A stretch of 64,000 nucleotides of DNA, taken from an uncultured delta proteobacterium (GTDB taxonomy: Bacteria > Myxococcota_A > Polyangia > Fen-1088). The stretch is from assembly GCA_963755125.1 (NCBI GenBank), contig CAVWIP010000014.1, positions 65,681 through 129,680 of the forward strand. Direction: 5' to 3'. This document shows, piece after piece, positions 3,425 through 51,003 of this stretch. The notes under the pieces were generated by a model that saw only the letters and a program-made list of their open reading frames with translations, had not been told where the DNA came from and did not search any database. Position numbers and translations under genes: made by a program. Every line of letters starts with the position of its first letter. The stretch's first letter is position 1.

Positions 3425-3738
3425 ACCGATCGAACCCACTGTGTGCGATGGGCATTGGCGCCGCGCTGGTCCTCGTCGCGAATCCGCCAGCGGCTTTCGC
3501 CACGGTCCGGGTCGCCACACTCATCGGAAGTCACATGATGGTCCAGCGGAACCGGCCGATCCGGCTGTGGGGGACAGCCGCCCCGGGCGAGTCGGTTCGG
3601 GCCACGCTGGCTGGCGGGAAGGCGGCGAAGCAGGCGGATATCGGCCCCCCGAACACCCTGAGAAACCAGGCCGACCTGCCGGCGGCGCCGTTTCGTAGCG
3701 ACGAGTGGCCAGCCCCCTCGTCCGACGCGGGACCGTGA
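3421..3738 (+). pseudogene. N-terminal stub of a sialate O-acetylesterase-like (SGNH/DUF303-type) gene
   Basis: ATGA start/stop overlap with the GH95 gene. A signal peptide is followed by ATLIGSHMMVQRNRPIRLWGTAAPGESVRATLAG, which resembles the conserved LFSDHMVLQR..PVPVWG.A.PGE.V.V start of these esterases. The ORF stops after 105 aa and no catalytic domain follows. Confidence 0.5.
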
Positions 3739-3798
3739 CGAAAGCCGGGATCACGGTCATACGGAATTCGACGTCACGATCCAAAGGGAAGCTTATCT

Positions 3799-5709
3799 TT
3801 GGGCCGAGCATGCGGCACGATGGCACGTGCAGGATTGAGCATGGCAACCCCACTTGATTCACGTCTGCAAAGGCGAGTTGACGACCAACTCCGTCTGGCG
3901 CAGCAGGCGCGGTTGCTGTCACCCGATACGGCGGCCCCGTATTTTTCGCACATGCGGCTGGAGACGGACGGCCGGGTTCGCGACGTGTTGCTGGGTCCGC
4001 AGACGCGAACTGGCGGCGGTTTGGTCATCATCGACTGGCGAGATGCACCGCTGGCCGAGGTCTTTTTTTCATGCGCCGAGGGCGACGACTACGAGATCGA
4101 GGTCGGCGAGCGCACCCTGACCGGCACGCTCACCGAGCGCAATCTGGTCGGTTTTTCGCACGGCGAGCTTGACGAAATCGAGTGCCCCGAAGGGCGACTC
4201 CGATCCCAAGACGGTGAGTGGCAGGTTGAGGCAGCGCGCAGCCTCGGGCTGGCGCTGCGGCCCGAGGCTGCACGCCTGCGCTCCAGCTCACCCGCGGACG
4301 TGGTGCTGGATGCAGCCCAGCGACGAATCGTCGAGCTGCCAGCCGGAAAGCCGGTGCTGCTCTTGGGCGAGGCGGGATTCGGCAAGACCACGGTGGCTCT
4401 GCATCGGCTGGCGCATCTGCGACAGCGGACCGAACCCGGGCTGCGCGCCGCCGTTATTGTGCCCACCGAGGGCTTGCGCCGTCTTTCGGCCGCGCTGCTC
4501 GAAAGACTGGGAGCGGGCGGCGTCGAGGTCTGGCTGTACGATCGCTGGGCAGGGGCCGAGGCCCGGCGCGCCTTTCACAAGCTGCCCGAGCGCGAAAGCC
4601 AGGACGCCAGCGCCGGGGTCATCCGCATCAAGCGCGATCCGGCGCTGCGGGGTGTGCTGGCGGAGTTGGCGGCGAAATCGGCCACCCGGCCGCGTGGCGG
4701 GCGACGGACGCGGCGGCGGGATCTGCTGCACCTCTTTGGGGACCGCGTGCTGATGCAGAAGCTGGCTGCAGCTTCCCAGCAGGGTATTGGCGCGGGTATG
4801 GTGGCCGAGATCCTGGAGCACACGCACGTGCAGTTCAGCAACACCGCCGAGGAGGAATTCGAGCACGTGGACGCTGAGCGTTTGCTGACCGTGGACGGTC
4901 GGCCCATCGACGACGGCACACCCATGGAGGATGCGGGCACCCTGGATACCGAGGACTACGCCGTGCTGTTCGAGATGGATCGGCTGCGAGCCGAGCGCGC
5001 GGGCGAGCGGCCAGCGCAGCCGCGCGCGTACGACTGCCTGGTGCTGGACGAGGCGCAGGAGTTTGCCCCGCTGGAACTGGCACTGATGGGCCGTGCGCTG
5101 GCGCCGGGTGGTAGTTTGATCGTCGCGGGGGATGCGGACCAGCAGGTGGATTCCACGGCGTGTTTTTCCGGCTGGGCCGGGAGCATGGCCGAGCTGGGGT
5201 GCGCTGCCTACGAGACCGCCGTGCTGGAGATCAGCTACCGCTGCCCGCCAGACGTGACTGAGCTGGCCCGGCGAATCCTCGACGGTGGCAATGTGTGTTG
5301 GCCGCCCGGGCCGGCGACGGTGTGCAGGGAATTCGCCAACCAGTGCCACCAGGCCGATTGGCTGACCCGCGAGCTGCGCACGCTGCAGACCAGCGATGCG
5401 CGAGCGTCGGCGGCCATCATCTGTCGCACGCGCGAGGCAGCTCGGCGCATGGCCCAGCACCTGCGGCGCGGGCTGGGCTTGCGACTGGCACTGGACGGCG
5501 ACTATCAATTCGTGGGCGGCATCAACGTCACCAGCGTGCAGGAAGCCAAGGGACTCGAGTTCGACTACGTGGTGATCCCTGATGCCTCGGCTGCGGTCTA
5601 TCCCGCCACGCCCGTCGGCCGTCGCGCCTTGTACGTGGCGGTCACGCGCGCCTCGCACCAGCTAGTCCTATCCACCGTCGGGCCGTGGACGCAGATGTTA
5701 GGCCACTAG
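3799..5709 (+). CDS. UvrD/HelD-like superfamily 1 DNA helicase
   Basis: Walker A is GEAGFGKTT and motif II is CLVLDEAQEF. C-terminal motifs are VQEAKGLEFDYVVI and ALYVAVTRASHQLVL. The N-terminal VIIDWRDAPLAEVFF resembles the HelD (helicase IV) N-terminal motif. The start could be 3799, 3820 or 3841. Confidence 0.75.
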   Translation: MGRACGTMARAGLSMATPLDSRLQRRVDDQLRLAQQARLLSPDTAAPYFSHMRLETDGRVRDVLLGPQTRTGGGLVIIDWRDAPLAEVFFSCAEGDDYEIEVGERTLTGTLTERNLVGFSHGELDEIECPEGRLRSQDGEWQVEAARSLGLALRPEAARLRSSSPADVVLDAAQRRIVELPAGKPVLLLGEAGFGKTTVALHRLAHLRQRTEPGLRAAVIVPTEGLRRLSAALLERLGAGGVEVWLYDRWAGAEARRAFHKLPERESQDASAGVIRIKRDPALRGVLAELAAKSATRPRGGRRTRRRDLLHLFGDRVLMQKLAAASQQGIGAGMVAEILEHTHVQFSNTAEEEFEHVDAERLLTVDGRPIDDGTPMEDAGTLDTEDYAVLFEMDRLRAERAGERPAQPRAYDCLVLDEAQEFAPLELALMGRALAPGGSLIVAGDADQQVDSTACFSGWAGSMAELGCAAYETAVLEISYRCPPDVTELARRILDGGNVCWPPGPATVCREFANQCHQADWLTRELRTLQTSDARASAAIICRTREAARRMAQHLRRGLGLRLALDGDYQFVGGINVTSVQEAKGLEFDYVVIPDASAAVYPATPVGRRALYVAVTRASHQLVLSTVGPWTQMLGH

Positions 5710-36460: not shown

Positions 36461-36850
36461 GTGAACGCGGTCAAGAACAGAAAAGTTCTCGTTGTCGAGG
36501 ACTCCCGGCTCATCCACAAAATGTACGAAGTCATGCTACGGCCAACCACCTTGGTGTCCGCCTACGATGGGCGCGATGGGCTGGACAAGCTCAGCCAGAG
36601 CCCTGACGTGGATCTCATCATCCTGGATATCAACATGCCGAAGATGACCGGGCTGGAGTTTCTGGCGCAGGTGAAGTCCACCCCGGCCCTGGCCCAGATT
36701 CCCGTGATCATCGTCTCCACCGAGGGCAAGGAGGAGGATGTCGCGCGCGGCCTGCAGAACGGAGCCGCGGCTTATCTCAGGAAACCGTTTCAGCGCGAGG
36801 ATCTCCTCAAGTTGGTCAACCGGCTCGAGTCCAAGCAACCTGCGGCATGA
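36461..36850 (+). CDS. cheY: CheY-like single-domain response regulator
   Basis: VLVVEDS, phospho-acceptor context DLIILDINMPKMTG, IIVSTEG and YLRKPF. GTG start with a GGGAGG SD. Confidence 0.85.
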   Translation: MNAVKNRKVLVVEDSRLIHKMYEVMLRPTTLVSAYDGRDGLDKLSQSPDVDLIILDINMPKMTGLEFLAQVKSTPALAQIPVIIVSTEGKEEDVARGLQNGAAAYLRKPFQREDLLKLVNRLESKQPAA

Positions 36851-37632
36851 GCGACGGCAGCAACATGACTGACCCAATTCTTCCCGCAGATGTGCCCGCC
36901 GACGAGGGCGCTCTGGCCCAGGGAGGGCGAGATGCAATGGCCACCTTGCAGCGGGCGCAGCAACTCGTGCGCGATGCGCAGGCGGCCATCGAGGAGGCGA
37001 GCCGAGTGGTGGGCCTGGGCAACGGGGCAGGGCCGTCGGACGGGGTAGAGGCGCGCCTGGTCGCCGCGGAGAACGAGCGCGCGGAGCTGACCGGTCGCCT
37101 GGCCGATGTGGAGCACCAGGTGGGCCGCCTGATGACCCTGTACGTGGCCACCTATCAACTTCATGCCACGCTCGACCCGGTCGAGGTGCAGACGACCATC
37201 GCCGAGATCGCACTCAACCTGATCGGCGCCGAGCAGTTCGTGCTGCTGCTCATCGACGATGAGGATCAGAGCTACGAAATACGGCTCAGGCAAGGCGAGC
37301 CCACCACGCCCTGGGCGCAGGCCGAACGCTACGCAGGCGGCGATTTTCTGGTGGACGCGGCGCTGGCCGACGGCGGGCTGCGATTCGGTCCCACCGCGCA
37401 ATCGTCGGCCCTGGCGGTGGTGCCCTTGCGCGTGCAGGACGTGACCGTCGGGGCGCTGGTCATCTTCAAGCTGCTGGCGCACAAGCCGGCCTTCGTGAAG
37501 GAAGACCACGATCTGCTCGATCTGCTGGGGGCTCATGCCGCATCTGCGGTCTTCGCCTCCCGGGTTTACTCCAAGACGGCGCGCAAGCTGCGCACGCTCG
37601 AGAGCCTGATCCGCTTGGTCAACAAAGGATGA
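36847..37632 (+). CDS. Coiled-coil plus GAF-domain protein
   Basis: ATGA overlap with cheY. The N-terminal part is coiled-coil-like (…AENERAELTGRLADVEHQVGRLMTLY…). The GAF-like core is EIALNLIGAEQFVLLLIDDE…AVVPLRVQDVTVGALVIFKLL…DLLDLLGAHAA. Confidence 0.6.
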   Translation: MSDGSNMTDPILPADVPADEGALAQGGRDAMATLQRAQQLVRDAQAAIEEASRVVGLGNGAGPSDGVEARLVAAENERAELTGRLADVEHQVGRLMTLYVATYQLHATLDPVEVQTTIAEIALNLIGAEQFVLLLIDDEDQSYEIRLRQGEPTTPWAQAERYAGGDFLVDAALADGGLRFGPTAQSSALAVVPLRVQDVTVGALVIFKLLAHKPAFVKEDHDLLDLLGAHAASAVFASRVYSKTARKLRTLESLIRLVNKG

Positions 37633-37671: not shown

Positions 37672-39288
37672 ATGAGCTTCCAGGGTCGCATCGAGGATGT
37701 CGCCATCGCGGACGTGATGCAGCTCATCCGTCTGGGCGGGCATTCGGGCACTTTGTCGATTCACTCCGCCGAAGACGAGGCGCTCATCGGGTTCGAACGC
37801 GGTCGCCTGGTCAGCGCCTGGACCCCGCGCAGGTTGCGCCTGGGCGAGATGCTGGTTGCGGCCGGTGCCATCGGCGAGGCCACCTTGCAGCGGGCGCTGG
37901 AGACGCAAGAGGTGGAACGACCCCGGCGCACCATCGGGCAGATTCTGGTCCGCCAGGCTGCCACCACGCCCGAGGTCATCCGGCAGGTCGTCGGGCAAGA
38001 GATCGAGCGCGTGGTCAAGGAGGTGCTGGCCTGGCCCACCGGCACTTTCGAATTCGCGCTCGACGATCTGACGCCCATGGTGGAGGTGTCGCGCTTCTCC
38101 GGCGCGCCCAAGGTCGACCTAGACACGCAGCAGGTCCTGCTGGAGGTTCTGCAGGCGATGGAGGAGGAGTCGACCCGCGCTGCCTGCCAGCCGCCCGTTC
38201 CGATCGAGGTCTTGCCGGAAGGGTCGCAGCCGCTCGAGGAATTCGTGCAGGTGCTGACCAAGGGCAACCGCAAGCGGCCCGAGGGCGAAGTGACGTCGGT
38301 GCCCGAGCCCGCGGCCCCCGATAGCGGGATCACCACCAAAAGCGAAGTGCCCGATCGGCCGCGCTTTCAGCTGGTCTCTCCCGACGCAGACCTGCTGGCG
38401 CAGATCAATCACCTCCTGGCCGAGACCGGCGACCGCATGTCAGTGGTAGGTTTGCGCGATGCCGGGGCGTCGTTGCTGGGCGAGGCGCCGCCCATCGTGG
38501 TGGTGGACCTGCGCTACCAGTCACGGGCGGTAGAAACGCTCACCGCGCTCTGCCGGGCGCGACCCCGGGCCTCGGTGGTCGCGCTCTTCGTGGGGCGCGC
38601 CCCTTTGTGCGACATCTACCATGCGGGCGTGGTGTCCATCACCTCGGCCGGACCCGAAACCGTGGTCGCCTGTGTGCGCAGTGTGGCGCGCCAGCGCAAG
38701 TACCTGTCCAACGAAAACGCCATCGCCGAGGGTGTACGCTCCAGCTTCGCGCGCTTGCGACGGATCATCGCCGATCTGCGCTCCGGGCTTCTCGCCACCT
38801 CGGTGTCGCTCAATCTGCTCAACGTGGTGGCCGAGTCGCTCGACCGCGGCGTGCTGCTGGTGCCTGACGGCGAGAACTTGGTGGGCTTGGGCGCCTTCGG
38901 GCAAACCGCGCAAGGCGAGGAATTGGTGGCCAAGACGCAGAACCTGGCCTTTCCCGTGGGCGAGAGTGGCGTCTTCTGCGACTGTCTCAAGGACAGCCAG
39001 ACCCGCCGCCTCAACTACGACAGCGCAGTATTGCCGCAGGCTTTCCGCGACGTGGTCGACCGTCCTGCGTCGGGCGAGATCGCGGTCTTGCCTGTGCCCG
39101 GCAGCGAGCGCGTGATCGCCATCATCTACCTCGATAACGGTGCTCGCGATCGGCCGGTGGGCGACATCGAGATCTTCGAGTTGGCTGCGTTCCAACTCGG
39201 CTTGGCGCTGGAGAACGAGTTCTTGCGGCGCTCGGCCCCCGAGCGCAAGACGGGCGGACCCGTTATCAAGATGCGCAACATGGGATAG
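37672..39288 (+). CDS. Multidomain protein: DUF4388 (PATAN) N-terminus, tandem MshEN/T2SSE_N-like motif, pseudo-receiver-like segment, C-terminal GAF-like domain
   Basis: FQGRIEDVAIADVMQLIRLGGHSGTLSI fits DUF4388. RLGEMLVAAGAIGEATLQRALETQ plus TIGQILVRQAATTPEVIRQVVGQ fit the MshEN repeat motif. PPIVVVDLRY is receiver-like. The C-terminal …VIAIIYLDNGARDRPVGDIEIFELAAFQLGLALEN is GAF-like. Confidence 0.65.
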   Translation: MSFQGRIEDVAIADVMQLIRLGGHSGTLSIHSAEDEALIGFERGRLVSAWTPRRLRLGEMLVAAGAIGEATLQRALETQEVERPRRTIGQILVRQAATTPEVIRQVVGQEIERVVKEVLAWPTGTFEFALDDLTPMVEVSRFSGAPKVDLDTQQVLLEVLQAMEEESTRAACQPPVPIEVLPEGSQPLEEFVQVLTKGNRKRPEGEVTSVPEPAAPDSGITTKSEVPDRPRFQLVSPDADLLAQINHLLAETGDRMSVVGLRDAGASLLGEAPPIVVVDLRYQSRAVETLTALCRARPRASVVALFVGRAPLCDIYHAGVVSITSAGPETVVACVRSVARQRKYLSNENAIAEGVRSSFARLRRIIADLRSGLLATSVSLNLLNVVAESLDRGVLLVPDGENLVGLGAFGQTAQGEELVAKTQNLAFPVGESGVFCDCLKDSQTRRLNYDSAVLPQAFRDVVDRPASGEIAVLPVPGSERVIAIIYLDNGARDRPVGDIEIFELAAFQLGLALENEFLRRSAPERKTGGPVIKMRNMG

Positions 39289-39292
39289 CGCC

Positions 39293-41068
39293 GTGGAGGA
39301 GCTGTTCGCATCCCTCATCAAGGACTTCGTCGAGGAGACGGGGCCGCTGGCACGCGAGGTGGCGACCCTGGTTTTGCGACTAGAGGAAGCGCGCGCCAAC
39401 GGCGAGGAGGTGGAGGAGTTGCTGCGCGCAATGAAGAGCGCGCTGCACACCATCAAGGGCAATGCGGCCATGATGGGCCTGCCGGTCATCGCATCGGTGG
39501 CTCATGCGTTGGAGGACTATTGCTTGCTCGTCAGTCAGAAGGCCGAGAGTGAGCCATCAGGCCAGGCACAGATTTTGGTGGACGGGACCGATTTGCTCAT
39601 TCGCTCCATTCAGGGTTCTGTGCAGGGCGACGCCGAGCAAGCGTCGGTCGCGGCTTTCCTCGATCGCGTGGCTCGGGGAGTGGCGGCAGCGGGCGAGACG
39701 GTGCGTGCGCCGACACCGCTTGCGCGACCGCGCGTGCGGGCGCCGGCCGTGGCGGCCCAGGTGCCCGAGGCGGGCCCGCAAGCGGAGAAGTCGGCCGCGT
39801 CCGGCGCAGCCGTCGATCAGGATGGGGAAGGCAACGCGGTTCGCATCGCCGATCACGAAGTGGACGGGCTGCTCGACCTGACGGCCGAGGCCATCATCAG
39901 TCACGCCGAGCTGGTGCGCTTTGCCGGTCGGCTGGCGCGCGGGCACGTGCAGCGCAGCGACGCGGCCTTGCTCGAGCAAGTGCTGATCGCGCTGGGTCGG
40001 GCCACGGCCGAGATGCGCCACGACCTTCTGCGCGTGCGGCTGGCGCCCATCTCCTCTATGTTTCGGCGCTACGTTCGCTATGTGCGCGATCTGGCGCGCG
40101 AGCGCGGGCAGGCCATCCAGCTCGTCATCGAAGGTGGCGAGGTCGCCGTGGATCGCGCCATCATCAGCCGCCTGCACGAGCCCCTGGTGCACATGGTGCG
40201 CAACTCGGTGGCGCACGGGATCGAGAGCGCCGCGGAACGGGCTGCCGCGGGCAAGCCGGCGCGGGCCCAGATCCTGCTGGGTGCGCGGCTGGCCGAGGGA
40301 CGCGCGCGCATCGTGGTGGCCGACGACGGCCGGGGCCTCGACATGGCCGCGATCGCGGCCAAGGCCCGCGCCTTCGGGCTGGATCCCGAGCACATGCCGG
40401 AAAGCGAATTGCGGCGCCTGATCTTTCAGCCCGGCTTTTCCACCGCCACCGAGGTCTCTACCCTGGCCGGCCGGGGCGTGGGACTGGAAGTGGTGGCCAA
40501 CGTGGTGCAGAGCCTGGGCGGCAGCATCGACGTGCGCAGCGTGGCCGGGCAGGGGACGGTTTTTCTCATCGATTTGCCGGTGACCGCATCGCTGGTCAAG
40601 GCCTTGATCTTCGGAGTCGACAGCGAGACATTCGCCGTGCCGGCCAGCTTCGTGGTCGACAGCATCGAGGTGCGGGAGGCATCGATGCTCGAGATCAACC
40701 GCGTGCTGCTCTGTCCCTGGCGTGGCGATTTCTTGCGTGTTCTCGACGCTGGACGCCTGCTGGGCTGTGCCGGGTTGGTGCAGGACTGGACGCGCCCCTA
40801 TGGCATCGTGGTCGAGGCAGCCGCCAAACGCTGTGCCTTGATGGTCGACTGGCTGGTGGGTGTGCAAGAGATCGTGGTGAAGCCGCTGGACGAGACCCTG
40901 CGCACCTCGCGCGTGATCTCGGGCCTGACCATCCTGGGTCAGGGGCGCGTGGTGCCCATCCTGGATTGCAGCGAGGTGGTCAAGCGCGCGGCGGGTCCGG
41001 CCGCGGGCTTGCCCCCCAGAACTTCGTCGGGCGAGGATCCACACAGGAGCAGCAGCTATGGCATCTGA
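39293..41068 (+). CDS. cheA: Chemotaxis histidine kinase CheA (P1-P3-P4-P5; no obvious P2, no receiver)
   Basis: HPt is ALHTIKGNAAMMG. Kinase boxes are N box HMVRNSVAHGIE, G1 DDGRGLD, F box IFQPGFST and G2 GRGVGLEVV, with a C-terminal CheW-like domain. I chose GTG 39293, just after the upstream stop; ORF 39140 overlaps the previous gene. Confidence 0.9.
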   Translation: MEELFASLIKDFVEETGPLAREVATLVLRLEEARANGEEVEELLRAMKSALHTIKGNAAMMGLPVIASVAHALEDYCLLVSQKAESEPSGQAQILVDGTDLLIRSIQGSVQGDAEQASVAAFLDRVARGVAAAGETVRAPTPLARPRVRAPAVAAQVPEAGPQAEKSAASGAAVDQDGEGNAVRIADHEVDGLLDLTAEAIISHAELVRFAGRLARGHVQRSDAALLEQVLIALGRATAEMRHDLLRVRLAPISSMFRRYVRYVRDLARERGQAIQLVIEGGEVAVDRAIISRLHEPLVHMVRNSVAHGIESAAERAAAGKPARAQILLGARLAEGRARIVVADDGRGLDMAAIAAKARAFGLDPEHMPESELRRLIFQPGFSTATEVSTLAGRGVGLEVVANVVQSLGGSIDVRSVAGQGTVFLIDLPVTASLVKALIFGVDSETFAVPASFVVDSIEVREASMLEINRVLLCPWRGDFLRVLDAGRLLGCAGLVQDWTRPYGIVVEAAAKRCALMVDWLVGVQEIVVKPLDETLRTSRVISGLTILGQGRVVPILDCSEVVKRAAGPAAGLPPRTSSGEDPHRSSSYGI

Positions 41069-41654
41069 GCAACGCCCCGCCGCGCCCCCTGCATCGGCTG
41101 CCCCAACATCCGCGCCGGCCCGCGACAGTCTGCTGGCCTTTGCCGATTCGGTTTTGGCCCGCCCCGCCGCGCCAGCCGCTGCGGCCGAGGTGCAGCCCTA
41201 CGTGACCTTCTTCCTGCGCCGTGAGGAATTCGGCCTTCCCATCTTGCGCAGTCGCGAGATCGTGCGCGTGAGTGAGATCACGCGCATCCCCGAGGCGCCC
41301 CCGCACGTGTGCGGTGTGCTCAATCTGCGGGGCCGGGTGGTACCTATCGTCGAGATTCGAACGCGTCTGGGGCTGGACGCGGCGCCCCTGACACCGCAGT
41401 CACGCGTGATCATGGTCGAGGCGCATGATCGCCTCTTCGGGTTGCTGGTCGATCGCGTGTCCCGCATCGCCAAAATTCCCGTCGCCGCCATCAAGCCTGC
41501 GCCGGCCGAGGCACTCTCCGCCAACACGGACTACGTCACCGGCATCGCCCAGATGGGCGCGGAGCTGATCATCATCCTCGATGTCGACAAGGTTCTCCTG
41601 CTCAACCCGACTGCGCCTCCGCCGACCGGCGCAAATTCGGAGCCGCGCGGATGA
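41058..41654 (+). CDS. cheW: CheW coupling protein
   Basis: YVTFFLRREEFGLPILRSREIVRVSEITRIPEAPPHVCGVLNLRGRVVPIV is the classic CheW core. An AGGAG SD is present, and the gene overlaps the cheA 3' end by 11 nt. Confidence 0.85.
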   Translation: MASEQRPAAPPASAAPTSAPARDSLLAFADSVLARPAAPAAAAEVQPYVTFFLRREEFGLPILRSREIVRVSEITRIPEAPPHVCGVLNLRGRVVPIVEIRTRLGLDAAPLTPQSRVIMVEAHDRLFGLLVDRVSRIAKIPVAAIKPAPAEALSANTDYVTGIAQMGAELIIILDVDKVLLLNPTAPPPTGANSEPRG

Positions 41655-43627
41655 CGGTGGAGGCCCTGTCTGATGTTCAGGAACGCCTGGCGGCTTTGCA
41701 AGCGGCGGTGGCGGGTGCGGAGCGTGACCAGGCCATCGTGGCCGGCCTGAAGGATGCATCCCCGCTGGTGCGGCAGAACGCCGTCGCGCTGGCCGCGCGC
41801 TATCTGGCGCCCGAGCTGCTGGCCCGGTTTCTCGCCGACGACGAGGACGCGACTCTGCGCAACGGGGCTCAGGCGGCGCTGGAGCGGCAAGGACCGCACG
41901 CGATTCCGCACCTGCTCGCGCTCACCCGGGATGCCAACCACGAGTTGGCATTCTTTGCGGTGCAGATTCTGTCCACCATCAATGATGTTTCGGCCAAGCA
42001 GGCGTTGTTGCCGCTGCTCGATCACCCGGACCGCAACCTCGTCCAGGCGGCCGTGGAAGCGCTCGGCCACATGCGCGCAGTGGAAGCCGTCCCCGCCTTG
42101 ATTCGCCTGCTGGCCAGCGATTCCTGGTTGCAGTTCGCGGCGGCCTCTGCTTTGGGCAGAATTGGGGATGCACGCGCGGTCGGCCCGCTGCTAGAACGCC
42201 TTGACGATGAGCTGCTCGCCGAGATGGTGATCGAGGCGCTGGGCCGAATTGGCGATGCGGATGGGCTTGAGCCCTTGCTCGATCGGCTGGTGTCAAGCGA
42301 TCGCCTGCCGCTGCGCGATCAGCTCCTGCTGGCCGTGGCCGCCATTCTGGAAGACAACCCCGGCCTGCGGGGTGTCCGTGCGCGCGCGCGCCTGTGGCGG
42401 CCGGACGCTCGGGCTGGTTTGCGCGACTATCTGATTGGCTTGCTGGCCATGCACGATGCGATGCTGGCGCGGTCGGTGGGCGTGCTGGTGGTGCGCGCCG
42501 AGATGTGGGATCTGATGCCGGCGCTGTTGCAGCGCAATCCGGATCCCGGCGAGGAATCCTGGCTGGAAGGCATGCTTCGTCGCTGCCGGCGTCGTGCTCA
42601 GGCCGAGTTGCTGCCCTTGCTCCAGCATACCGACCCGCGGGTGCGGGCGGGCACGTTGTTGCAGGTGCCGTTCGACGCTGGGGCCACGTCCGCCGTGGCC
42701 GGCTGCTTGCAGGATCAGGATCCGGAGGTGCGTGCGGCGGCCTGCCTTGCGCTGGGGCGACTGCGCGAGCCGTCGGCTGCTGCGGCTTTGGCTCATGCCC
42801 TGCGATCGAGCGATGCGTGCGAGCACACGGCCGCGGCGCGCGCCCTGGCCCAACTGCCGGGCGAGAGCTTGGCCGTGCTGGCGCCCGAGCTGGAACCAGA
42901 AGCTGCCGATGAGCAACGGCAGCGTGCGCTCACGGTGCTGGAACAGGCGCGCAGCACGATGCACGAGGAGCGGGTGCGCGCGCTGGTGCACGACGGCCCG
43001 CCGGTGGTAAGGCAGGCGGCCCTGCGCGTGCTGGGGCGGTATCCCGGCCGCGCGACTGACGAATGGATCATGGCCGGTCTGCGCGACGACGAGTTGGCGG
43101 TGCGCATCGCCACGGTCGAGATCCTGGTGCGCCGGCGCTGTCGCAAGGCCATCCCGGCCCTGATCGAGCTCTTGCCAGGCGCCGATCCGCTGCGCTACCA
43201 TCTGGTGCGCGCCCTGGGACGGCTGCATGCCAAGGTGGCGGCATCCCGACTGCAGGCCCTGTATACCGGGGCGCCGCTGCACGAGCGCATCGAGATTGTG
43301 GTGGCTCTCAACCAGATTGCGCCGGCCGGGGTGCTGCCGTTCTTGCGTGGGGTTCTGGACGATCCCGATGTGGAACTGCGGCGGGTCGCCTCCGACGGGT
43401 TCGTGCGGGCGGCGGGCCCGCGCGAGCTGGAAGCAATGGTGGCACTGGCCCGGGACGCCGACTGGGTGGTACGCAATCACGCGGCCTGGGGCCTGGGCCG
43501 CCTGGGCTTGCCGGCCGCCCAGCCGCACCTGGCCGCCCTGGCCCGCGACGTGGAACCCCTGGTGGCGCGCACCGCACGTGCGGCGCTCGGCCAGCTGGCT
43601 GCCGACAACCCGGATGTGAAGGCATGA
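41651..43627 (+). CDS. 658-aa HEAT-repeat (PBS-lyase-type) protein
   Basis: ATGA overlap with cheW. About 31-aa periodic units of type D..VR..AA.ALG.. run along the whole length (DPEVRAAACLALGRL, DWVVRNHAAWGLGRLG, etc.). Confidence 0.75.
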   Translation: MTVEALSDVQERLAALQAAVAGAERDQAIVAGLKDASPLVRQNAVALAARYLAPELLARFLADDEDATLRNGAQAALERQGPHAIPHLLALTRDANHELAFFAVQILSTINDVSAKQALLPLLDHPDRNLVQAAVEALGHMRAVEAVPALIRLLASDSWLQFAAASALGRIGDARAVGPLLERLDDELLAEMVIEALGRIGDADGLEPLLDRLVSSDRLPLRDQLLLAVAAILEDNPGLRGVRARARLWRPDARAGLRDYLIGLLAMHDAMLARSVGVLVVRAEMWDLMPALLQRNPDPGEESWLEGMLRRCRRRAQAELLPLLQHTDPRVRAGTLLQVPFDAGATSAVAGCLQDQDPEVRAAACLALGRLREPSAAAALAHALRSSDACEHTAAARALAQLPGESLAVLAPELEPEAADEQRQRALTVLEQARSTMHEERVRALVHDGPPVVRQAALRVLGRYPGRATDEWIMAGLRDDELAVRIATVEILVRRRCRKAIPALIELLPGADPLRYHLVRALGRLHAKVAASRLQALYTGAPLHERIEIVVALNQIAPAGVLPFLRGVLDDPDVELRRVASDGFVRAAGPRELEAMVALARDADWVVRNHAAWGLGRLGLPAAQPHLAALARDVEPLVARTARAALGQLAADNPDVKA

Positions 43628-44463
43628 ACGGGCCCTTGGCAGAGGAAGAATGGAAGCTCCTGCTCGATCTGGTGAGCCGGGAGTTCGGCCTGGTGTTTCA
43701 AGAGTCGCGTCGCCGTCACCTGGAAGGCCGGCTGACGCCGCGGTTGCAGGCTCTCGGCCTGGAATCGTTTGGCGCCTATTATCGCTATCTGGCGCGCCAC
43801 CCGGATCGCGGCGCCGAGTTGCACGTGCTCGCGCGCATCCTGACCAACAACGAGACCTACTTCTTTCGCGAGGCCCATCATTTCGATCTGCTGGTGCAGC
43901 ACGTGGTTCCGCAATTGTCGCTGCCCGCGCGGCCGGGACCGCTGCGCGTGCTGTCGGCAGGTTGCTCGTCCGGAGACGAGGCCTACTCCATCGTGATCGC
44001 GCTGCAAGGGGCGCGCTTGGATCGTGAGGGCTTGTCCTGGCACATCGATGCCTGCGATCTGAACCCGGCGCGCATCGTGCAGGCGCGTGAAGGCATCTAC
44101 GAGGCCGAGTCGTTGCGGGCCTGCGACGAGTTGGGGCGCCACGCGCACTTCAGCGTGCAGGGCGACCGCTTTCGCCTGCGTCCCGAGCACCGCAAGGGAA
44201 CCAGTTTCTTCGAGGCCAACTTGGCCGTGGCGGGGCTCGATCTGCCGGGCGCGCCTTACCACGTGATCTTCTGCCGCAACGTCCTCATCTATTTTTCCGA
44301 GGAGGCGTTCCACCGCGCGATTTCCCACTTTCACCGCGCTCTGGCTGCGGGCGGGTATCTCTTCTTGGGTCACGCCGAATCGCTGATCGGGAGGCGCAGC
44401 GATTTCAAACCGGTGCGTCTGTGCGACTCGATCGTCTATCGCAAGCAGGACACGGGGACATGA
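43624..44463 (+). CDS. cheR: Chemotaxis methyltransferase CheR
   Basis: ATGA overlap with the HEAT gene. ETYFFRE, SAM-binding LRVLSAGCSSGDEAYS, IFCRNVLIYF. The in-frame upstream part of ORF 43063 is rejected because it overlaps the HEAT gene. Confidence 0.9.
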   Translation: MNGPLAEEEWKLLLDLVSREFGLVFQESRRRHLEGRLTPRLQALGLESFGAYYRYLARHPDRGAELHVLARILTNNETYFFREAHHFDLLVQHVVPQLSLPARPGPLRVLSAGCSSGDEAYSIVIALQGARLDREGLSWHIDACDLNPARIVQAREGIYEAESLRACDELGRHAHFSVQGDRFRLRPEHRKGTSFFEANLAVAGLDLPGAPYHVIFCRNVLIYFSEEAFHRAISHFHRALAAGGYLFLGHAESLIGRRSDFKPVRLCDSIVYRKQDTGT

Positions 44464-45506
44464 CCAGAGTTTTCGTTGTCGACGACTCGCCTTTCATCCG
44501 CAAAGCTGTGGCGCGTGTGTTCTCGGCGCGAGATGACATGCAGGTGGTGGGGACGGCCCAGAGCGGGGAAGAGGCCCTGGAGCGGCTTGCTGCGGCCCGG
44601 CCGAATGTGGTGACGTTGGACGTGGAGATGCCGGGCATGGGCGGCCTGGCGACCCTGCGGGAGATCCAGCGCCGCTACCCGGGCCTGCCCGTGATCATGC
44701 TGTCGGTGTACACGAAAGAGGGAGCGGAGACGACACTCGACGCCATCAACGCCGGAGCGGTGGACTTCATCGACAAGAGTCGCCTCAATGTCATGGACTT
44801 CGACCGCCTGTCGCGCGAATTGCTGGCCAAGATTGAAGTGTGGAAGCAGGCGCCCCATGGCCATTCCTGGGAGCGCGCGGTCTCGCCACTGCCGGCTCAT
44901 CCCGCGGCCCCGGGCGCCGTCCCGGTGGTGGACTGGTCGTCCTATGATTTGTGCGTGATCGGTGCTTCCACGGGTGGCCCGCCTGCCTTGCAACAGATCG
45001 TGAACCAGGTTCCCCAGGATTTCCCCCTGCCCATCGCCGTGGTCCAGCACATGCCGGTGGGGTTCACCCGTCCGTTCGCGGAGCGGCTGAACTGCCTGGG
45101 TCGGATCCGGGTGAAAGAAGCCGCGGATCACAACACCCTGCAGCCTGGTCAGATGTTGCTGGCGCGAGCCGGAGCGCACCTTTTCATTGAGTCCGACCTG
45201 ACCGCTCATCTGTCGCTTGACCCCATAGATGCGGTTCACATCCCCAGCATCGACGTACTGATGGAGTCGGCCAGCCGCGCCCGTCCCGGACGTGTGGTGG
45301 GAATCTTGTTGACTGGCATGGGCGACGACGGGGCCGAGGGGATGCTGGCCATCCGTCGTTCGGGCGGCCTCACCGTTGCCGAGGCCGAATCTTCGTGCGT
45401 GGTGTACGGCATGCCCCGTGCGGCCCACAAACGCGGCGGGGTTTCCCACATGCTTTCCCTTCCCGAGATCTGTCAGCTCTTCGCAGCAAGGAGCGATGAC
45501 CCATGA
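44460..45506 (+). CDS. cheB: Chemotaxis methylesterase CheB (receiver + esterase)
   Basis: ATGA overlap with cheR. Receiver motifs are VFVVDDS and [13 protein letters not shown]. Esterase Ser/His/Asp contexts are GASTGGP, VVQHMP and LTGMGDDG. Confidence 0.9.
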
Positions 45507-47863
45507 GCAGCCAGAAAGACGCGCCCCAATCTGAAGAGGCCCTAGCCAAAGTCGCCAAGCCGGTAACCCTGCTTCGCCGTTTCCAAACCGTCCCGTTGCT
45601 GCGACACATGCGCCTGTGGCAGAAACTGCTGTGCATCGTGGTGGTGTTGCTGATTCCCACTCTGTTTCTGCTCAGGGACTTCGTCAGTCGTGCCAGCCAG
45701 GACATCGTGCGCACCCGCACCGAACTGTGCCTGGATGAACACTCGCGTCTGTTGCGCGTGATCCTGGACAACCTGACCGCCCTGCGCCTGGGCCGGGCCG
45801 AGTCCGAGGCGGCCGCGGCCGGCCTGGCGGCGAACGCGAGTGCGCAGGTCGAGAGCGCCCTGGCGCAACTCGATCGCGCAGAAACCTCGGGCTGCGGCCG
45901 TGCCGATCCGGGCATCGCGGGGCGCATGCGTCCGGTCCTGGCGGGGCTGCGCGCCGGTTGGACCCAACCACCCGGCGATGGTGTGCGCGCTGAGGAGATC
46001 GACCGGCGCATGCGCGAACAACTGCGCTTGGGCTATCGGCAGATCGCCACGCGTAGCAGTCCCGGCTCGGCCGCTGACCTCGATTCGGAACTGGTCAACG
46101 AGGCGACCCGCAGCACGCTGCCCGAGGCGGCGTGGAGGCTGGCAGATTTGGTGGTGCTGGGTGCCCAGATTGCGTCGGCCAACGACACGGCCATCGAAGC
46201 GCGGGCACAGCTCATCAACGCGGTGGAGAGTCTGGAGGCCAGCGCGCTCGATCTGCAGCGCGGGTTGCGCGCGCTGTCCGTCAACGAGGGCGGGGTCACT
46301 GGGGCGGGGGATTCGCTGGACGCAAGCGTGGGCGCCGTTGTGAAACGGTATGTGCAATCCCTGCGCGAGACCACTGCGGCGGCACGCGAGTTGAGCGCGC
46401 AGGGAAAGACGGCGGGGACACACGACACGGCCGCGCTGCACACCGCCCTGGCTATGAAAAAGTCGGCCAAGTCGGCCCTCGAATCACTCTTCGCCACCTA
46501 CGACGCGGCCTTGGCGTGGCAGGGAAGCCAACTGGGCGAGCGGGTGGCGCGCCTGGAAGGGCAGCGCTCGCGCACCGTCGCCTTCGTGATAGTGGCGTTG
46601 CTGCTGGCGGGCTTTCTGGTGTCGGTCATCGTACGCAGCATCACCACCCCACTGTCGGCGGCGGTGGAGTGCTCCAACCGCCTGGCTGCCCAGGACTTCA
46701 CAATCGAGATTGCGCCCAGCGAATCCAGTGATGAGGCGGGCCAGTTGCAGGCCTCCATGCGCCAGATGGCCAGCAGCCTGCGAGCCACCATCCGATCCAT
46801 CCTCGCCTCGTCGCGAATCGTGGCGGCTGCGTCCGAGAAGATCTCTAGCTCGGGCAGTCAGTTGGCGCGCGGGGCAGAAACCCAGTCGGCTGCCACCGAG
46901 GAAACATCCTCAAGCATGGCGCAGATCGCGGCGCAGATTCAGCAACTGGCCAAGACCGCGATGTCGCTTTCGGCCAGCGTGGAGCAGACCACCACGGCCT
47001 TTCAAAAGATGCACGAAACCCTCGAGCGCACGGCCAATCACGGACAGACTTTGCTGACTTCGTCACAAGATGCGAGCGCGCATCTGGCCGAACTGACCAG
47101 CAGCATCACCCAGGTCACCAGCCAGTCCCGCTCGGCCAATGAAATGTCGCAGTCGGCCCTGGGAGCGGTGAAGCTGGGCGGGGAGAAGCTGCAGCAGTCC
47201 ATCGGCGGGATCGGCGAGCGTGCGCAGGAGGTCAGCAAGATCGTGCGGCTCATCGAGGAAATCGCCGATCAAACCAACCTGCTGGCGCTCAACGCGGCCA
47301 TCGAGGCCGCCCGCGCGGGTGAGGCCGGACGTGGTTTCGCGGTGGTGGCCGACGAGGTGCGCCGGCTCGCCGAGCGCAGCGCGCAGGCCACGCAGGACAT
47401 CAGCGCCATCATCGAGCGCGTGCAGAAGGATGTCGGCTCGGCGGTGGTCTTGACCGACGAGGTTCTGGTGGGGATGATGGCGTCCATCGACAAGACCTCG
47501 TCGATCATAGAAGAGAGCGCAGTGACCACCGAGAGGCAGACCGAGTCCGCACGTCGGACGCTGAAGATGGCCGAGAACATGGCAAGCTTGGCCCAGCAGA
47601 TCGCGGTGGCCTCGCGCGAGAACGCAGGCAGCGCCGCCGAGATTGTCAAGGCATCGCACAACATGAACGAGCTGACCAACATCATGCTGGACGCCACCAT
47701 CGAGCAGAAGCGCGGGGGCGAGACCGTGGTCAAGGCGACCGATTCGATCGCGGAAGTGGCGCGACAAAATCTGCAAGTGGTGGAAGGCATCAACCTGGCC
47801 GTGCGTGAGTTGGTCGCCGAGGCGGAGACCCTGCGCAAGCGCGTGGAGGCGTTCACCGTCTGA
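45503..47863 (+). CDS. Methyl-accepting chemotaxis protein with about 300-aa periplasmic helical sensor, HAMP and MA domains
   Basis: ATGA overlap with cheB. Two TM segments are present ([16 protein letters not shown] and [19 protein letters not shown]), followed by HAMP. The invariant hairpin is [42 protein letters not shown]. Confidence 0.9.
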
Positions 47864-49803
47864 TGCAATCCCAAGCGTCCCCGCAGTCTTTGGGGGAGGC
47901 CCTGCTGAGCGCCCTGGGCGATACCGACCGCTCCCGCCGCGAAGAAGCCATTGCCCAGGCGGCCGTCGCGGCTGACCCGGACAGTCTGGTGGAGCTTCTG
48001 GGCAAGCACGACGATGCGGCCAGCCGCAACGCCGCTCTGGAGGCGCTCGCCCGCGGCGGCAGCCGCAGCCTGCCCGCGCTGGTGCGCGCCTTGCGCAGCA
48101 GCGACGAGGAGGTCGTGATGTTCGCGGCCATGGCCTTGGCGCAAACCCGCGGCCCAGGCGGCATCCCGCATCTGCTTCGACTCTTGCACCATCCCGATCT
48201 CAACGTCGCGCAAGCCGCCATCGACGCGCTGGGCAAGCTGCGCGCGGTTTCGGCGACCGGTCCGATCGAAAAGATGCTGACGGCCGATCCCTGGCTGCGC
48301 TTCGCCGCTGCCAACGCCCTGGGCGAGATCGGGAGCCCGAGCAGCGTGCCCGCCTTGCTGCGCGTGCTCCACGATCCGTCGCTGTCGGACTTGGCCATCG
48401 AGGCACTGGGAAAGATCGGCTCGGGGAACGCCGCGGTGGCGCTTGCGGAGATTGCCATCGAGCGGGTTGAAACCGAGCAATTCACGGTGTGCGTGCTCGC
48501 GTTGGGGCGTGCCCTCGGCCAGCAACTCGACCGAACCGCACTCGCGGCGAACCCGGTGTGGACGCGCCTGGCATCGCCGGAAGCGGCAGCCGTGCACGAG
48601 CGTCTGCGGCGTATCCTGGGCACGGGCGATGCCGAAGCCGGCGGGAGCGAGTTGCAGGAGGTGAAGGAAGCGGCCATCGAGGTGATCCGGGGTGTGCCGC
48701 TCACATCACTTCTTTGTCTGCTGGTGGAAAGCGCGTGGGATGCAAGCTTGACCGAGGCACTGCTGGATGCGTTGGTTTTCGCGGGACCGGAGGTGCGGCC
48801 TTGCGTGCTGGCCGGGCTTGGTCACGGCGACACGCGGGTGCGCCGGCTGGCCTGTGTGGCAGCCGGGCACTTGAACATGACGGAGGCGGCGCCTGCCTTG
48901 TGCCGCCTGGCCGACGACGGGGCGCCAGAAGTGCGGGCCGACGCCTTGCGCGCGCTGGCGCGATTGCACGAGTACGATGCCTTGCCCATCATCCTCGGGC
49001 GCCTCTCCGATGTCAGCGGCGAGGTGCGCGCCGCAGCCCAGTGGGCGCTGGACTTCATGGACGCCGAGCAGGTGACGGCGGCCATCCTGGAAAACTCCGA
49101 GCTTGCCCGCCGCCACGCCGCCGAGATTCTGGCCGTGATGCAGGCCCATCCCGTGGCTGCGCAGCATGAGTTCATCGAGAATCGCCTGGCCGACCCGCGC
49201 GAGGAAGTTCGGCGAGCTGCGGTCGCGGCCTTGGCCGCAAGGGGCGGGGCCGAGGTCGTCGAGATACTGGAGCCGTTTCTGCGCGATCCCGCAGCAGCGG
49301 TTCGGCAGGAGGTGGTGCGGGGCTTGGGGCGCCAGCGATCGCAGCCTGCGCAGGCGTTGCTGTTGCAGCAGTACCAGCGCGATCCAGCAACGCGCAGGGA
49401 AGCCTTGCTGGCGCTCGGAAAGATTGGCGACTGTGTGGCGGCGCAAAGACTGACCGGGCTGCTGTCCGCGCAAACCTTGCCCGAGCGCCTGGCCATCATC
49501 GATACCTTGGGGACGCTGGCGGCCCCGTGCACGGAGCCCATCCTGATCGGGTTGCTGCGCGATCCCGAGTTCGAGGTTCGTTGTCGGGCGGCCGTCGCCC
49601 TGGGGCGATTCACAACCACAGGTGCAGCGACCCGTCTGGCGCTGGCCACGCGGGATGCGGACGCACGCGTGCGACTCGCGGCGCTTGAGGCGCTGGCTCC
49701 GGCGAAGAGCCATCCAGCAGTGGTGCAAGCCATCGAGCGTCTGTGCTTGGATCCCAGCCCCGCCATCGCCGCCTTGGCCCGGCAGTGGCTTGACAAGACG
49801 TAG
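47863..49803 (+). CDS. 646-aa HEAT-repeat (PBS-lyase-type) protein, second copy
   Basis: TGATG stop/start overlap with the MCP gene. It has the same D..VR..A..ALG.. periodicity (APEVRADALRALARL, SGEVRAAAQWAL, REEVRRAAVAALAARG, EFEVRCRAAVALGRF, DARVRLAALEALA). Confidence 0.75.
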   Translation: MQSQASPQSLGEALLSALGDTDRSRREEAIAQAAVAADPDSLVELLGKHDDAASRNAALEALARGGSRSLPALVRALRSSDEEVVMFAAMALAQTRGPGGIPHLLRLLHHPDLNVAQAAIDALGKLRAVSATGPIEKMLTADPWLRFAAANALGEIGSPSSVPALLRVLHDPSLSDLAIEALGKIGSGNAAVALAEIAIERVETEQFTVCVLALGRALGQQLDRTALAANPVWTRLASPEAAAVHERLRRILGTGDAEAGGSELQEVKEAAIEVIRGVPLTSLLCLLVESAWDASLTEALLDALVFAGPEVRPCVLAGLGHGDTRVRRLACVAAGHLNMTEAAPALCRLADDGAPEVRADALRALARLHEYDALPIILGRLSDVSGEVRAAAQWALDFMDAEQVTAAILENSELARRHAAEILAVMQAHPVAAQHEFIENRLADPREEVRRAAVAALAARGGAEVVEILEPFLRDPAAAVRQEVVRGLGRQRSQPAQALLLQQYQRDPATRREALLALGKIGDCVAAQRLTGLLSAQTLPERLAIIDTLGTLAAPCTEPILIGLLRDPEFEVRCRAAVALGRFTTTGAATRLALATRDADARVRLAALEALAPAKSHPAVVQAIERLCLDPSPAIAALARQWLDKT

Positions 49804-49923: not shown

Positions 49924-51003
49924 GTGCCGCAAGCGACATCACTTCCAAGTCAGGCGTTGCACAAGTCGAATGCCCCGCAAATCAGGCCAGAGGAGTTGAG
50001 CCAACTGGCCGGCCTCTTCGCGGCCAAGCTGAAGGCCGGCCTCTCGATCAGCCAGGCGCTGTATGCGCTGTCAGTCGATTCGAAGAAGCCGGTTCTGGTG
50101 GCGGCGTGCAAGGGCGTGAAGGCCAGCGTGGATGCCGGCCGGCCGCTGGGTGAAGCCATGCGCGCATACCCGGACGTGTTCGACGAGATCAGCGTGGCGG
50201 TGCTGGGCGCGGGCCAGAAGAGCAATCGCCTGCCGATCGAGCTGCAACGTTTGTCGGCTTATCTCGGCACCACAGCGAAGATTGCGCGCGGCCTGCGCAG
50301 CGCGACCACGCGGCCCATGCTCAGCCTTGGTGTCGGCCTGCTGGTCATCATGGCCGGCCTTGCGGGCGCGGCGCCTGCCCTCGAGCGATTCCTGGAGAGC
50401 CTGCCCGAGCGAGAATGGCCGGCCGCCAGCCATCTGGCCATCCACGTCTCGCATGCCTTGCGATGGATCCTGCCGGTGGTGCTGGCGGCGCTGGCTCTCG
50501 TGTATGGGGGTTTTCGCCTGCTTGTGCGCGGAGAAAAGCGTCTGCGTTGGCGGGATAGGATGCTCTTGGGGGCGCCGATTGTCGGGTCGTTGTGGCGGGC
50601 CAAGGCGGTGGCGCACTTTTGCCGCACCACCGGGCTGCTGGCCTCCGCCGGTATTCCGCTGCTGGAGGCGATGGAAAGCGCCGCGATGACCTCGGGCAAC
50701 TTGGCAGTGCGCGGGGCGGTGCTGCTAGTGGCTGACAAGCTGGGCAAGGGCCGCGACTTGCCCCCGTTGCTGGTCGAGGTTGGCCTGGTCCCGCGATCCG
50801 AGATGAACGCCATGCAAGCGGCCGAGCGGCGGGGAGCCCTGGGTGAAGTGCTCATGAAGCACGCTGAAGCCAGCGACGCCGATCTGTTGAGGAGGATCAA
50901 CCGGCTCAAGAACCTGGCGCAGTCGGCGACGGTCTTGCTGCTCGGTCTGCTGGTAGCCGCCGTGGTATTGGGGCTGGTCGGCGCCGCGCTGGCGGGCCGC
51001 TGA
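49924..51003 (+). CDS. Type II secretion / type IV pilus platform protein family (GspF/PilC-like), orphan
   Basis: Two T2SSF-type cytoplasmic repeats are present (…AGLSISQALYAL…VKASVDAGRPLGEAMRAYPDVFDEISVAVLGAGQKSNRLPIELQRLSAYL and …LASAGIPLLEAMESAA…VADKLGKGRDLPPLL…MQAAERRGALGEVL). Three TM segments have the GspF spacing. GTG start; 120-nt gap after the HEAT gene. Confidence 0.7.
   Translation: MPQATSLPSQALHKSNAPQIRPEELSQLAGLFAAKLKAGLSISQALYALSVDSKKPVLVAACKGVKASVDAGRPLGEAMRAYPDVFDEISVAVLGAGQKSNRLPIELQRLSAYLGTTAKIARGLRSATTRPMLSLGVGLLVIMAGLAGAAPALERFLESLPEREWPAASHLAIHVSHALRWILPVVLAALALVYGGFRLLVRGEKRLRWRDRMLLGAPIVGSLWRAKAVAHFCRTTGLLASAGIPLLEAMESAAMTSGNLAVRGAVLLVADKLGKGRDLPPLLVEVGLVPRSEMNAMQAAERRGALGEVLMKHAEASDADLLRRINRLKNLAQSATVLLLGLLVAAVVLGLVGAALAGR

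Follow-up and report, generated by a model that had tools for sequence, protein, structure and literature searches.

Residues 56-110 of a 538-residue protein encoded in a chemotaxis operon of an uncultured Polyangia bacterium almost certainly form the alpha-clip of a PATAN domain (PatA_N/DUF4388), a 55-residue four-helix bundle of two hairpins that is homologous to MshEN_N, the subdomain of MshE/PilB/PilF ATPases that binds the bacterial messenger c-di-GMP (cyclic dimeric GMP). The gene lies in a stretch of 64,000 nucleotides, here called the window (GenBank assembly GCA_963755125.1, contig CAVWIP010000014.1, positions 65,681 to 129,680 of the forward strand; lineage Myxococcota_A, Polyangia, Fen-1088). 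Binding of c-di-GMP by this clip is a reasonable hypothesis, and whether the binding would be specific and of physiologically useful affinity is, judged from the sequence, evenly balanced. The best explanation as a whole, in which a PATAN alpha-clip holds c-di-GMP across its two hairpins and thereby alters the contacts of the PATAN domain, likewise has about an even chance of being right. The alpha-clip, its kinship with ATPase N-termini and the occurrence of MshEN_N outside ATPases are already known from the literature and from NCBI models; the initial annotation of this DNA missed that the segment is the described PATAN alpha-clip and that MshEN_N outside ATPases is already catalogued. What is specific to the present case is the PATAN/REC-like/GAF architecture in a Polyangia che operon and an invariant Glu in the second half-site.

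A tandem hairpin motif inserted in a PATAN fold

The initial annotation had described a tandem MshEN-type motif in a protein without a secretion ATPase domain, and translation of the open reading frame (ORF) at 37672-39288 reproduces the motif sequences that it quoted. The pair spans residues 56-110 (window positions 37837-38001). Copy 1, residues 56-79 (nucleotides 37837-37908), reads RLGEMLVAAGAIGEATLQRALETQ and fits in full the relaxed motif with which Wang et al. 2016 searched, [RKPN]hGxxhhxx[GAS]hhxxxxhxxxhxx[QNKRYWST]; it also fits the strict MshEN motif except at Ala66. Copy 2, residues 87-110 (nucleotides 37930-38001), reads TIGQILVRQAATTPEVIRQVVGQE and violates the relaxed motif at slots 1 (T87), 12 (T98) and 24 (E110); in the 24-residue frame the final slot is E110, not Q109. 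The short spacer between the copies is confirmed, at 7 residues (EVERPRR) rather than the roughly 8 first counted. Copy 2 is indeed degenerate, but the missing Gly noted for it is a peculiarity of the present protein: in an alignment of 120 homologues with 56-100% identity the turn position is Gly in 113, and Ala96 is found only here and in three others. In the six frames of the window the relaxed motif turns up once, where 0.36 occurrences would be expected. The strict motif, allowing Ala, has an expectation of 7e-5 per window, and none of 200,000 shuffled versions of the protein contained it.

The segment sits inside a PATAN domain. A search with the DUF4388 hidden Markov model, proposed in the initial annotation, gave a clear match: PF14332 (DUF4388/PATAN) scores 82.5 bits against a cut-off of 25, with residues 4-166 covering profile positions 1-121 of 122. 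Because the whole 122-position profile is thus stretched over 163 residues, an insertion is implied. An AlphaFold2 model of residues 1-172, built from 16 family sequences (mean predicted local distance difference test score, pLDDT, 91.4), has a beta-meander of strands 2-6, 26-31, 36-42 and 45-50 with a helix at 12-22. The clip helices 57-63, 69-81, 88-94 and 100-119 fall between strands 45-50 and 125-130, which identifies the motif pair as a four-helix insertion within the PATAN fold. The signature W121..G124.F126.F128 is conserved in the C-terminal half of the domain. Makarova et al. 2006, as quoted by Han et al., describe the PATAN "alpha-clip" as a small helical insertion in which an antiparallel pair of helices is repeated twice over.

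Outside the clip, the PATAN core (residues 1-55 and 120-172) had no confident match in the copy of the PDB searched with Foldseek; its weak matches were to the actin-like ATPase folds of EutJ, PilM, MreB and acetate kinase, at a probability of <=0.25.

The absence of a secretion ATPase domain, or of any type II secretion or type IV pilus ATPase domain, is borne out. Pfam gives DUF4388/PATAN and a weak GAF match only, with no T2SSE, and no ATPase family in NCBIfam matches the 538-residue protein. Foldseek places the remainder of the chain in REC-like and GAF folds, and the protein does not belong to the MshE/GspE/PilB-type ATPases.

Homology of the clip to MshEN_N

Searched with Foldseek against the PDB, the full-length model gave REC and GAF matches only, and the N-terminal domain was therefore modelled alone. 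Its top match is MshE with c-di-GMP (5HTL, 5htl_B), over 57 columns with a root-mean-square deviation (rmsd) of 1.4 Å, 30% identity and a probability of 1.0; the E-value is only 0.03 because the aligned stretch is short. The c-di-GMP complex of PilF GSPII-B (9gl5) follows at rank 3. Sequence comparison points the same way. The N-terminal domain as a single sequence finds Thermus thermophilus PilF at 9e-6, and the 16-sequence N-terminal profile searched against the PDB finds the N-termini of PilF (4.6e-13), Geobacter PilB (5e-5) and MshE (6.7e-5) alone, with all MshEN-type matches inside residues 52-112. NCBIfam NF053729 ('c-di-GMP_motif', 53 positions, 'cyclic di-GMP-binding domain-containing protein, MshE-related', cut-off 38 bits) matches residues 56-108 at E 1.1e-9 with 37.9 bits, 0.1 bit under its cut-off. 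At E <= 1e-9 the model also picks up orthologues (14 of 38) and distant PATAN relatives (37 of 96). The homology to MshEN_N is significant in these searches, and the tandem motif is of the MshEN type.

Compared with the 53-residue MshEN_N domains of Vibrio cholerae MshE (5HTL) and T. thermophilus PilF (GSPII-B and GSPII-C), the clip shares the two 24-residue hairpins, the four-helix bundle, a canonical motif 1, both 'LG' glycines and both hydrophobic triads, and its spacer length of 7 residues also occurs in PilF GSPII-C and Geobacter PilB. It differs in that the bundle is inserted within another domain and is followed by neither MshEN_C nor an ATPase, helix 4 returning to the PATAN sheet in the AlphaFold2 model, and in that its motif 2 has Thr in place of Arg/Lys/Leu and Glu in place of Gln.

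PF05157 (T2SSE_N) does not match the 538-residue protein even at E <= 10 in Pfam. The initial annotation had offered such an absence, combined with no measurable c-di-GMP binding, as a refutation, and this use of the absence does not hold: three control fragments, Myxococcus xanthus PilB 1-74, PilF 299-355 (GSPII-C) and Geobacter PilB ~16-66, are not matched by PF05157 at E <= 10 either. As genuine MshEN_N fragments are missed too, the absence says nothing about MshEN_N, and we rejected PF05157 as a test of MshEN_N identity. With DUF4388 the same three fragments do give a match, to positions 49-76 of the profile (E about 0.005-0.01), from which it follows that the PATAN profile holds one copy of the hairpin motif. 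The current Pfam release detects the c-di-GMP hairpin through the PATAN model only.

Conservation in orthologues and across PATAN clips

We found 235 homologues, named as DUF4388 proteins of Polyangia metagenome-assembled genomes. Across the orthologue alignment R56, G58, L61, L72, L76 and Q79 never vary (120 of 121 rows; the other row has a gap), and motif 1 holds all six key residues R56, L57, G58, L72, L76 and Q79, with L57 varying among L, V and I only. Motif 2 keeps I88, G89, I103 and V107, both hydrophobic triads are retained, and G89, L92 and I103 are invariant in the homologues. At its slot 1 the orthologues have T, A, P, S or N, with an invariant Arg one residue upstream, and its slot 24 is Glu in 119 of the 120 homologues and Asp in the remaining one. 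The spacer is also under constraint, with R83, P84 and R86 invariant in 120/120 orthologues and E-R-P-R-R near invariant, whereas the MshE spacer has been described as non-conserved. The invariant ERPRR may be a partner-binding loop, or it may stand in for the absent Arg of motif 2.

For a wider comparison we took 162 PATAN domains at <= 50% identity from a HMMER search that used the N-terminal domain as query and gave 3913 matches at E <= 1e-3. The 7-residue spacer recurs in 132 of 163 PATAN clips, as it does in PilF GSPII-C and Geobacter PilB. Motif 2 usually starts with R-[S/P]-L-G in these diverse clips, so the upstream-shifted Arg is a PATAN-wide trait. Slot 24 is Gln in 137/162 clips for motif 1 and in 108/162 for motif 2, and Glu at slot 24 of motif 2 occurs in 6/162, which makes Glu110 a lineage-specific departure.

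Evidence for and against c-di-GMP binding

According to Wang et al. 2016, each motif's Arg stacks against a guanine, the next residue, Leu, builds a hydrophobic triad with the other motif's two Leu, backbone amides at the Gly read the Hoogsteen edge of the guanine, and the Gln bonds to ribose and phosphate. In MshE, G11L and G40I abolish binding. G58 and G89 are invariant here. Binding by the clip is made plausible also by the full set of six key residues in motif 1, with ligand-contacting Q79 among them, by the retained triads and by the prevalence of Gln at slot 24 in diverse PATAN clips. Departures from consensus are tolerated in part: PilF GSPII-B binds c-di-GMP at 6 nM with Lys and Leu replacing the two Arg, and for PilF GSPII-C, where the spacer is 7 residues long and motif II begins with Pro at slot 1, the value is about 0.3-0.5 µM. 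The Q190E and Q218E variants of PilF GSPII-B still bound via a protonated Glu, at ~0.45-0.8 µM at pH 8.5. Such Q-to-E variants bind ~20-fold better at low pH, and the double mutant showed no binding at pH 7.5.

An experimental precedent is the Bdellovibrio response regulator Bd2402, for which tight c-di-GMP binding was shown by Rotem et al. 2016 as reported in Wang et al. 2016. We took its orthologue from a B. bacteriovorus genome (positions 2386-4314 of its locus); the 642-residue protein is 100% identical over the published fragment. It has a REC domain at 8-122, a DUF4388 match at 164-287 that falls just under the gathering score (E 1e-4, 22.7 bits) and weak TPR-like repeats at the C-terminus. 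In hhalign, residues 7-105 of the present family, which comprise the beta part and the clip, align with Bd2402 160-259 (E 3.5e-5, probability 72%). Experiments have therefore probably already backed one clip embedded in a PATAN-like domain as a c-di-GMP site, published as 'REC - MshEN_N - UNK'. Bd2402 resembles the present protein in being of the response-regulator type, in lacking an ATPase, in having consensus deviations of its own and, with marginal support, in carrying its MshEN_N motif at the equivalent place of a PATAN-like domain. It differs in its order, REC-PATAN-TPR against PATAN-REC-like-GAF, and in the distribution of its deviations, since both Arg and Gln are retained in its motif 2 and the last residue of its motif 1 is Lys.

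Several observations weigh against binding. The second half-site lacks two of the six key residues, with T87 in the R/K/L slot and E110 in the Gln slot, and hairpin 2 departs further at its turn, where Ala96 replaces Gly, and in its core, where one slot is Thr98. In PilF GSPII-B a single Q-to-E change lowers the affinity ~75- to 130-fold (pH 7.5-8.5). Glu110 is near invariant in the orthologues yet rare in PATAN clips, which suggests a lineage-specific change of function. PilF GSPII-A, whose motif II has Ser in slot 1 and Arg in slot 24, is a non-binder even when all six deviating positions are restored to consensus, and hence the motif is insufficient and structural context matters. GSPII-A resembles the present clip in its near-canonical motif I and in the two altered slots of motif II (Ser39 against Thr87, Arg62 against Glu110). 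It differs in that the key Gly is replaced by Ala in its motif II and slot 24 is His in its motif I, where the present protein keeps G89 and Q79, and its failure to bind also depends on an N-cap and to subdomain contacts that have no counterpart here. NF053729 gives this non-binder 54.2 bits, the reported binder Bd2402 32.0 and the present protein 37.9. A regular-expression scan of the window for GGDEF, EAL, HD-GYP and PilZ signatures gave nothing convincing, and the literature searched contained no report in which a protein called PATAN bound c-di-GMP. As the published cases and the scores conflict, sequence alone cannot decide the matter.

We also considered whether binding can be predicted from the bit score on NF053729 and rejected this, the cut-off of 38 not tracking binding in GSPII-A (54.2) and Bd2402 (32.0).

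[quoted passage not shown] Hairpin 1 would supply a complete half-site, with R56 stacking on the base, the backbone amides at G58 reading it and Q79 reaching ribose and phosphate. L57 would pack with I103 and V107 of hairpin 2, and I88 with L72 and L76. Hairpin 2 would be weakened by T87 for Arg and E110 for Gln, giving an affinity that is probably micromolar or worse, and binding at this half-site could depend on protonation of E110. By analogy, ligand occupancy could change how the PATAN domain engages proteins of the Che array or a pilus or secretion platform: Han et al. describe PATAN as the output part of cyanobacterial regulators, where it binds PilB1 and PilC's N-terminal domain.

The strongest alternative keeps the alpha-clip identity and holds that the present lineage has lost, or never had, nucleotide binding and uses the clip purely as a protein-protein interaction surface, for example as a mimic of a PilB/GspE-type ATPase N-terminus that competes for, or docks on, a PilC/GspF-like platform or Che proteins. 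We rate it as a serious possibility, a little short of even. The PilB1 and PilC contacts of cyanobacterial PATAN domains speak for it. It would account for the invariant Glu110, for a slot 1 of motif 2 that is not Arg and for the invariant ERPRR spacer, it agrees with the behaviour of PilF GSPII-A, and the conserved hydrophobic slots are demanded by the fold alone just as well. It accounts less readily for the invariant R56 and Q79, whose MshE counterparts contact the ligand and do not form the fold, for Gln as the majority state at both slot-24 positions in diverse PATAN clips, and for Bd2402, where a lower-scoring PATAN-like embedded clip is a reported tight binder. An interaction surface and a ligand site are not mutually exclusive.

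A broader proposal is that PATAN alpha-clips as a class are cyclic-dinucleotide sensors feeding chemosensory and pilus-polarity pathways, and that Glu110 turns the present Polyangia site into a low-affinity, protonation-gated or asymmetric-ligand sensor (for example of 3',3'-cyclic GMP-AMP, 3',3'-cGAMP) that governs engagement of the Che array; taken together we consider this unlikely. Less probable still, and by a wide measure doubtful, is an asymmetric site tuned to another or asymmetric ligand, either 3',3'-cGAMP, a product of myxobacteria, or c-di-GMP bound only with Glu110 protonated and hence gated by pH. MshEN_N binds cGAMP detectably but weakly (3.3e-4 M), M. xanthus regulates its 3',3'-cGAMP levels according to PMC8844925, the protonated-Glu binding of the PilF GSPII-B variants provides a model for pH gating, and the altered half-site is strictly conserved within the lineage. 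Against it, the affinity of MshEN for cGAMP is ~600-fold weaker than that for c-di-GMP, and the base-contacting parts of half-site 2 (the G89 backbone and the triad) are unchanged and give no pointer to adenine recognition. Chance resemblance in an Ala/Leu-rich helical segment of a high-GC genome is refuted: A, L, R and G abound in proteins of such genomes and the relaxed motif has the expectation of 0.36 per six-frame window given above, but the strict motif has one of 7e-5, the profile matches to MshEN-type domains reach 1e-9 to 5e-13, the fold match to 5HTL is close and the feature is kept in 120 homologues and ~160 distant PATAN domains.

Known systems and meaning

MshEN_N outside ATPases has been catalogued before. 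The many ATPase-free proteins in the lists of Wang et al. 2016 combine MshEN or MshEN_N with REC, GAF, CheA, CheX, HD-GYP-REC-DUF4388, cyclases and kinases, and their M. xanthus table gives internal motifs starting at residue ~50-58 in MXAN_3211, MXAN_4739 and MXAN_1145. MXAN_3211 is termed a PATAN protein elsewhere, and its fragment scores 46.5 bits on NF053729. Among PATAN proteins with an alpha-clip, Synechocystis PixG, PixE and PilG and Anabaena PatA resemble the present protein in a strong PF14332 match, an insert at the same place and a REC fold that follows. The PatA-type (PATAN-REC) regulators that cyanobacterial Tax operons encode further share the setting of a chemotaxis-like operon beside cheA and cheW. 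They differ from the present protein, whose receiver is probably degenerate (no Pfam match; Thr and Lys positions apparently lost), which carries an extra C-terminal GAF domain and whose host is a Polyangia myxobacterium and not a cyanobacterium.

As it stands, the result mainly amends an annotation, in that the gene encodes a PatA-like PATAN/REC-like/GAF regulator whose MshEN_N-type insert is of a known sort and not a new kind of receptor. Were binding true, c-di-GMP would have an input directly inside a myxobacterial chemosensory operon. The case would also grow stronger for PATAN alpha-clips as a large class of c-di-GMP receptors with hardly any direct binding tests (3913 representatives, of which ~40% of those sampled reach the NF053729 cut-off), and the natural Gln-to-Glu change in half-site 2 would offer a ready test of the protonated-glutamate recognition known from the engineered PilF variants.

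REC-like and GAF parts

The full-length model has a pLDDT of 69, with a disordered linker at 173-227, a beta/alpha domain at ~230-343 and a GAF-like domain at ~390-520. Its best Foldseek match is 6oaq, a fragment of a REC-GAF dual-sensor kinase (324 columns, E 2e-8), followed by the receivers HupR, CheY and TadZ/CpaE and the GAF structures 3e0y, 3o5y and 5w10. Response_reg has no Pfam match in the 538-residue protein. D279, invariant at the putative phospho-acceptor position, and D238 align with the acidic residues of CheY only in a non-significant hhalign alignment (E 0.7 against the CheY of the operon), and the positions of the conserved receiver Thr and Lys are, on our reading of the model, Phe306 and Ser/Ile. 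The REC-like domain is probably a degenerate receiver.

The PATAN/REC-like/GAF layout seems widespread. Many PATAN representatives have 490-555 residues, and their full-length alignment shows conserved blocks in each of the three parts. When 96 PATAN relatives were scanned, DUF4388 was found in 96/96, GAF_2 in 21, Response_reg in 3 and GGDEF in 1. The last of these is a fusion to a GGDEF diguanylate cyclase (E 2.6e-32), a weak guilt-by-association link of the family to c-di-GMP.

Chemotaxis operon

The gene lies within a tightly packed chemotaxis operon (Table 1), which we compared with three relatives on long contigs (L001, L003 and L004, the last being an 81% relative). The order cheY-GAF-PATAN-cheA-cheW-mcp is kept in 3/3 relatives, the gene for the methyl-accepting chemotaxis protein (mcp, MCP) following cheW directly in L001 and L003 and after a called ORF of 44 residues in L004. 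A HEAT gene is present in one of the three, and cheR and cheB in none. The gene for the GspF/PilC-like (T2SSF) protein occurs in L004 and is absent from L001 and L003, and its product in the window falls far below the NCBIfam cut-offs for GspF and PilC (157.8 bits against 424). The tie of the PATAN protein to the Che core is thus well supported and that to the platform protein is clade-limited, so that the link to a GspF-like platform drawn in the initial annotation is weak: that gene is a neighbour in 1/3 relatives and the che core in 3/3.

Table 1. Features of the PATAN gene and of its operon, in window coordinates.
Feature	Position	Strand	Basis or remark
cheY-like receiver, first gene of conserved core	36461..36850	+	Pfam Response_reg; upstream in L001, L003, L004
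Stand-alone GAF protein	36847..37632	+	Pfam GAF_2, GAF_3; kept in 3/3 relatives
PATAN(alpha-clip)/REC-like/GAF gene	37672..39288	+	ORF and translation, 538 residues; Pfam DUF4388 82.5 bits, weak GAF_2
N-terminal half of PATAN, residues 1-55 (four beta-strands, one helix, linker 51-55 to clip)	37672..37836	+	AlphaFold2 model; PF14332
Alpha-clip hairpin 1, canonical MshEN-type 24-residue motif R56-Q79	37837..37908	+	Relaxed Wang motif; helices 57-63, 69-81
Spacer EVERPRR, 7 residues (80-86)	37909..37929	+	R83, P84, R86 invariant in orthologues
Alpha-clip hairpin 2, divergent MshEN-type motif T87-E110	37930..38001	+	G89, L92, I103 invariant; helices 88-94, 100-119
C-terminal half of PATAN, residues 111-172	38002..38187	+	Helix 4 to 119, then strand 125-130, helices 134-143 and 152-171
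Pro/Glu-rich low-confidence linker, residues 173-227	38188..38352	+	pLDDT <50, full-length model
REC-like (flavodoxin-fold) domain, residues ~230-343	38359..38700	+	Alternating beta/alpha; Foldseek
GAF-like C-terminal domain, residues ~390-520	38839..39231	+	Pfam GAF_2 22.2 bits, below gathering score; Foldseek
cheA (Hpt, HATPase_c, CheW-like)	39293..41068	+	Pfam; probable GTG start
cheW	41058..41654	+	Pfam CheW; kept in relatives
HEAT protein	41651-43627		
cheR	ends 44463		CheR domains in C-terminal part of ORF 43063-44463
cheB	ORF 44421-45506		
MCP (HAMP and MCPsignal)	45503..47863	+	Pfam
Second HEAT protein	47863-49803		
GspF/PilC-like platform protein, variable accessory	49924..51003	+	Pfam T2SSF

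The start of cheA is most likely the GTG at 39293, 4 nucleotides past the TAG of the PATAN gene; the longest-ORF start at 39140 would overlap that gene by ~150 nucleotides. In the relatives, the cheA orthologues begin 5-15 nucleotides after the PATAN gene.

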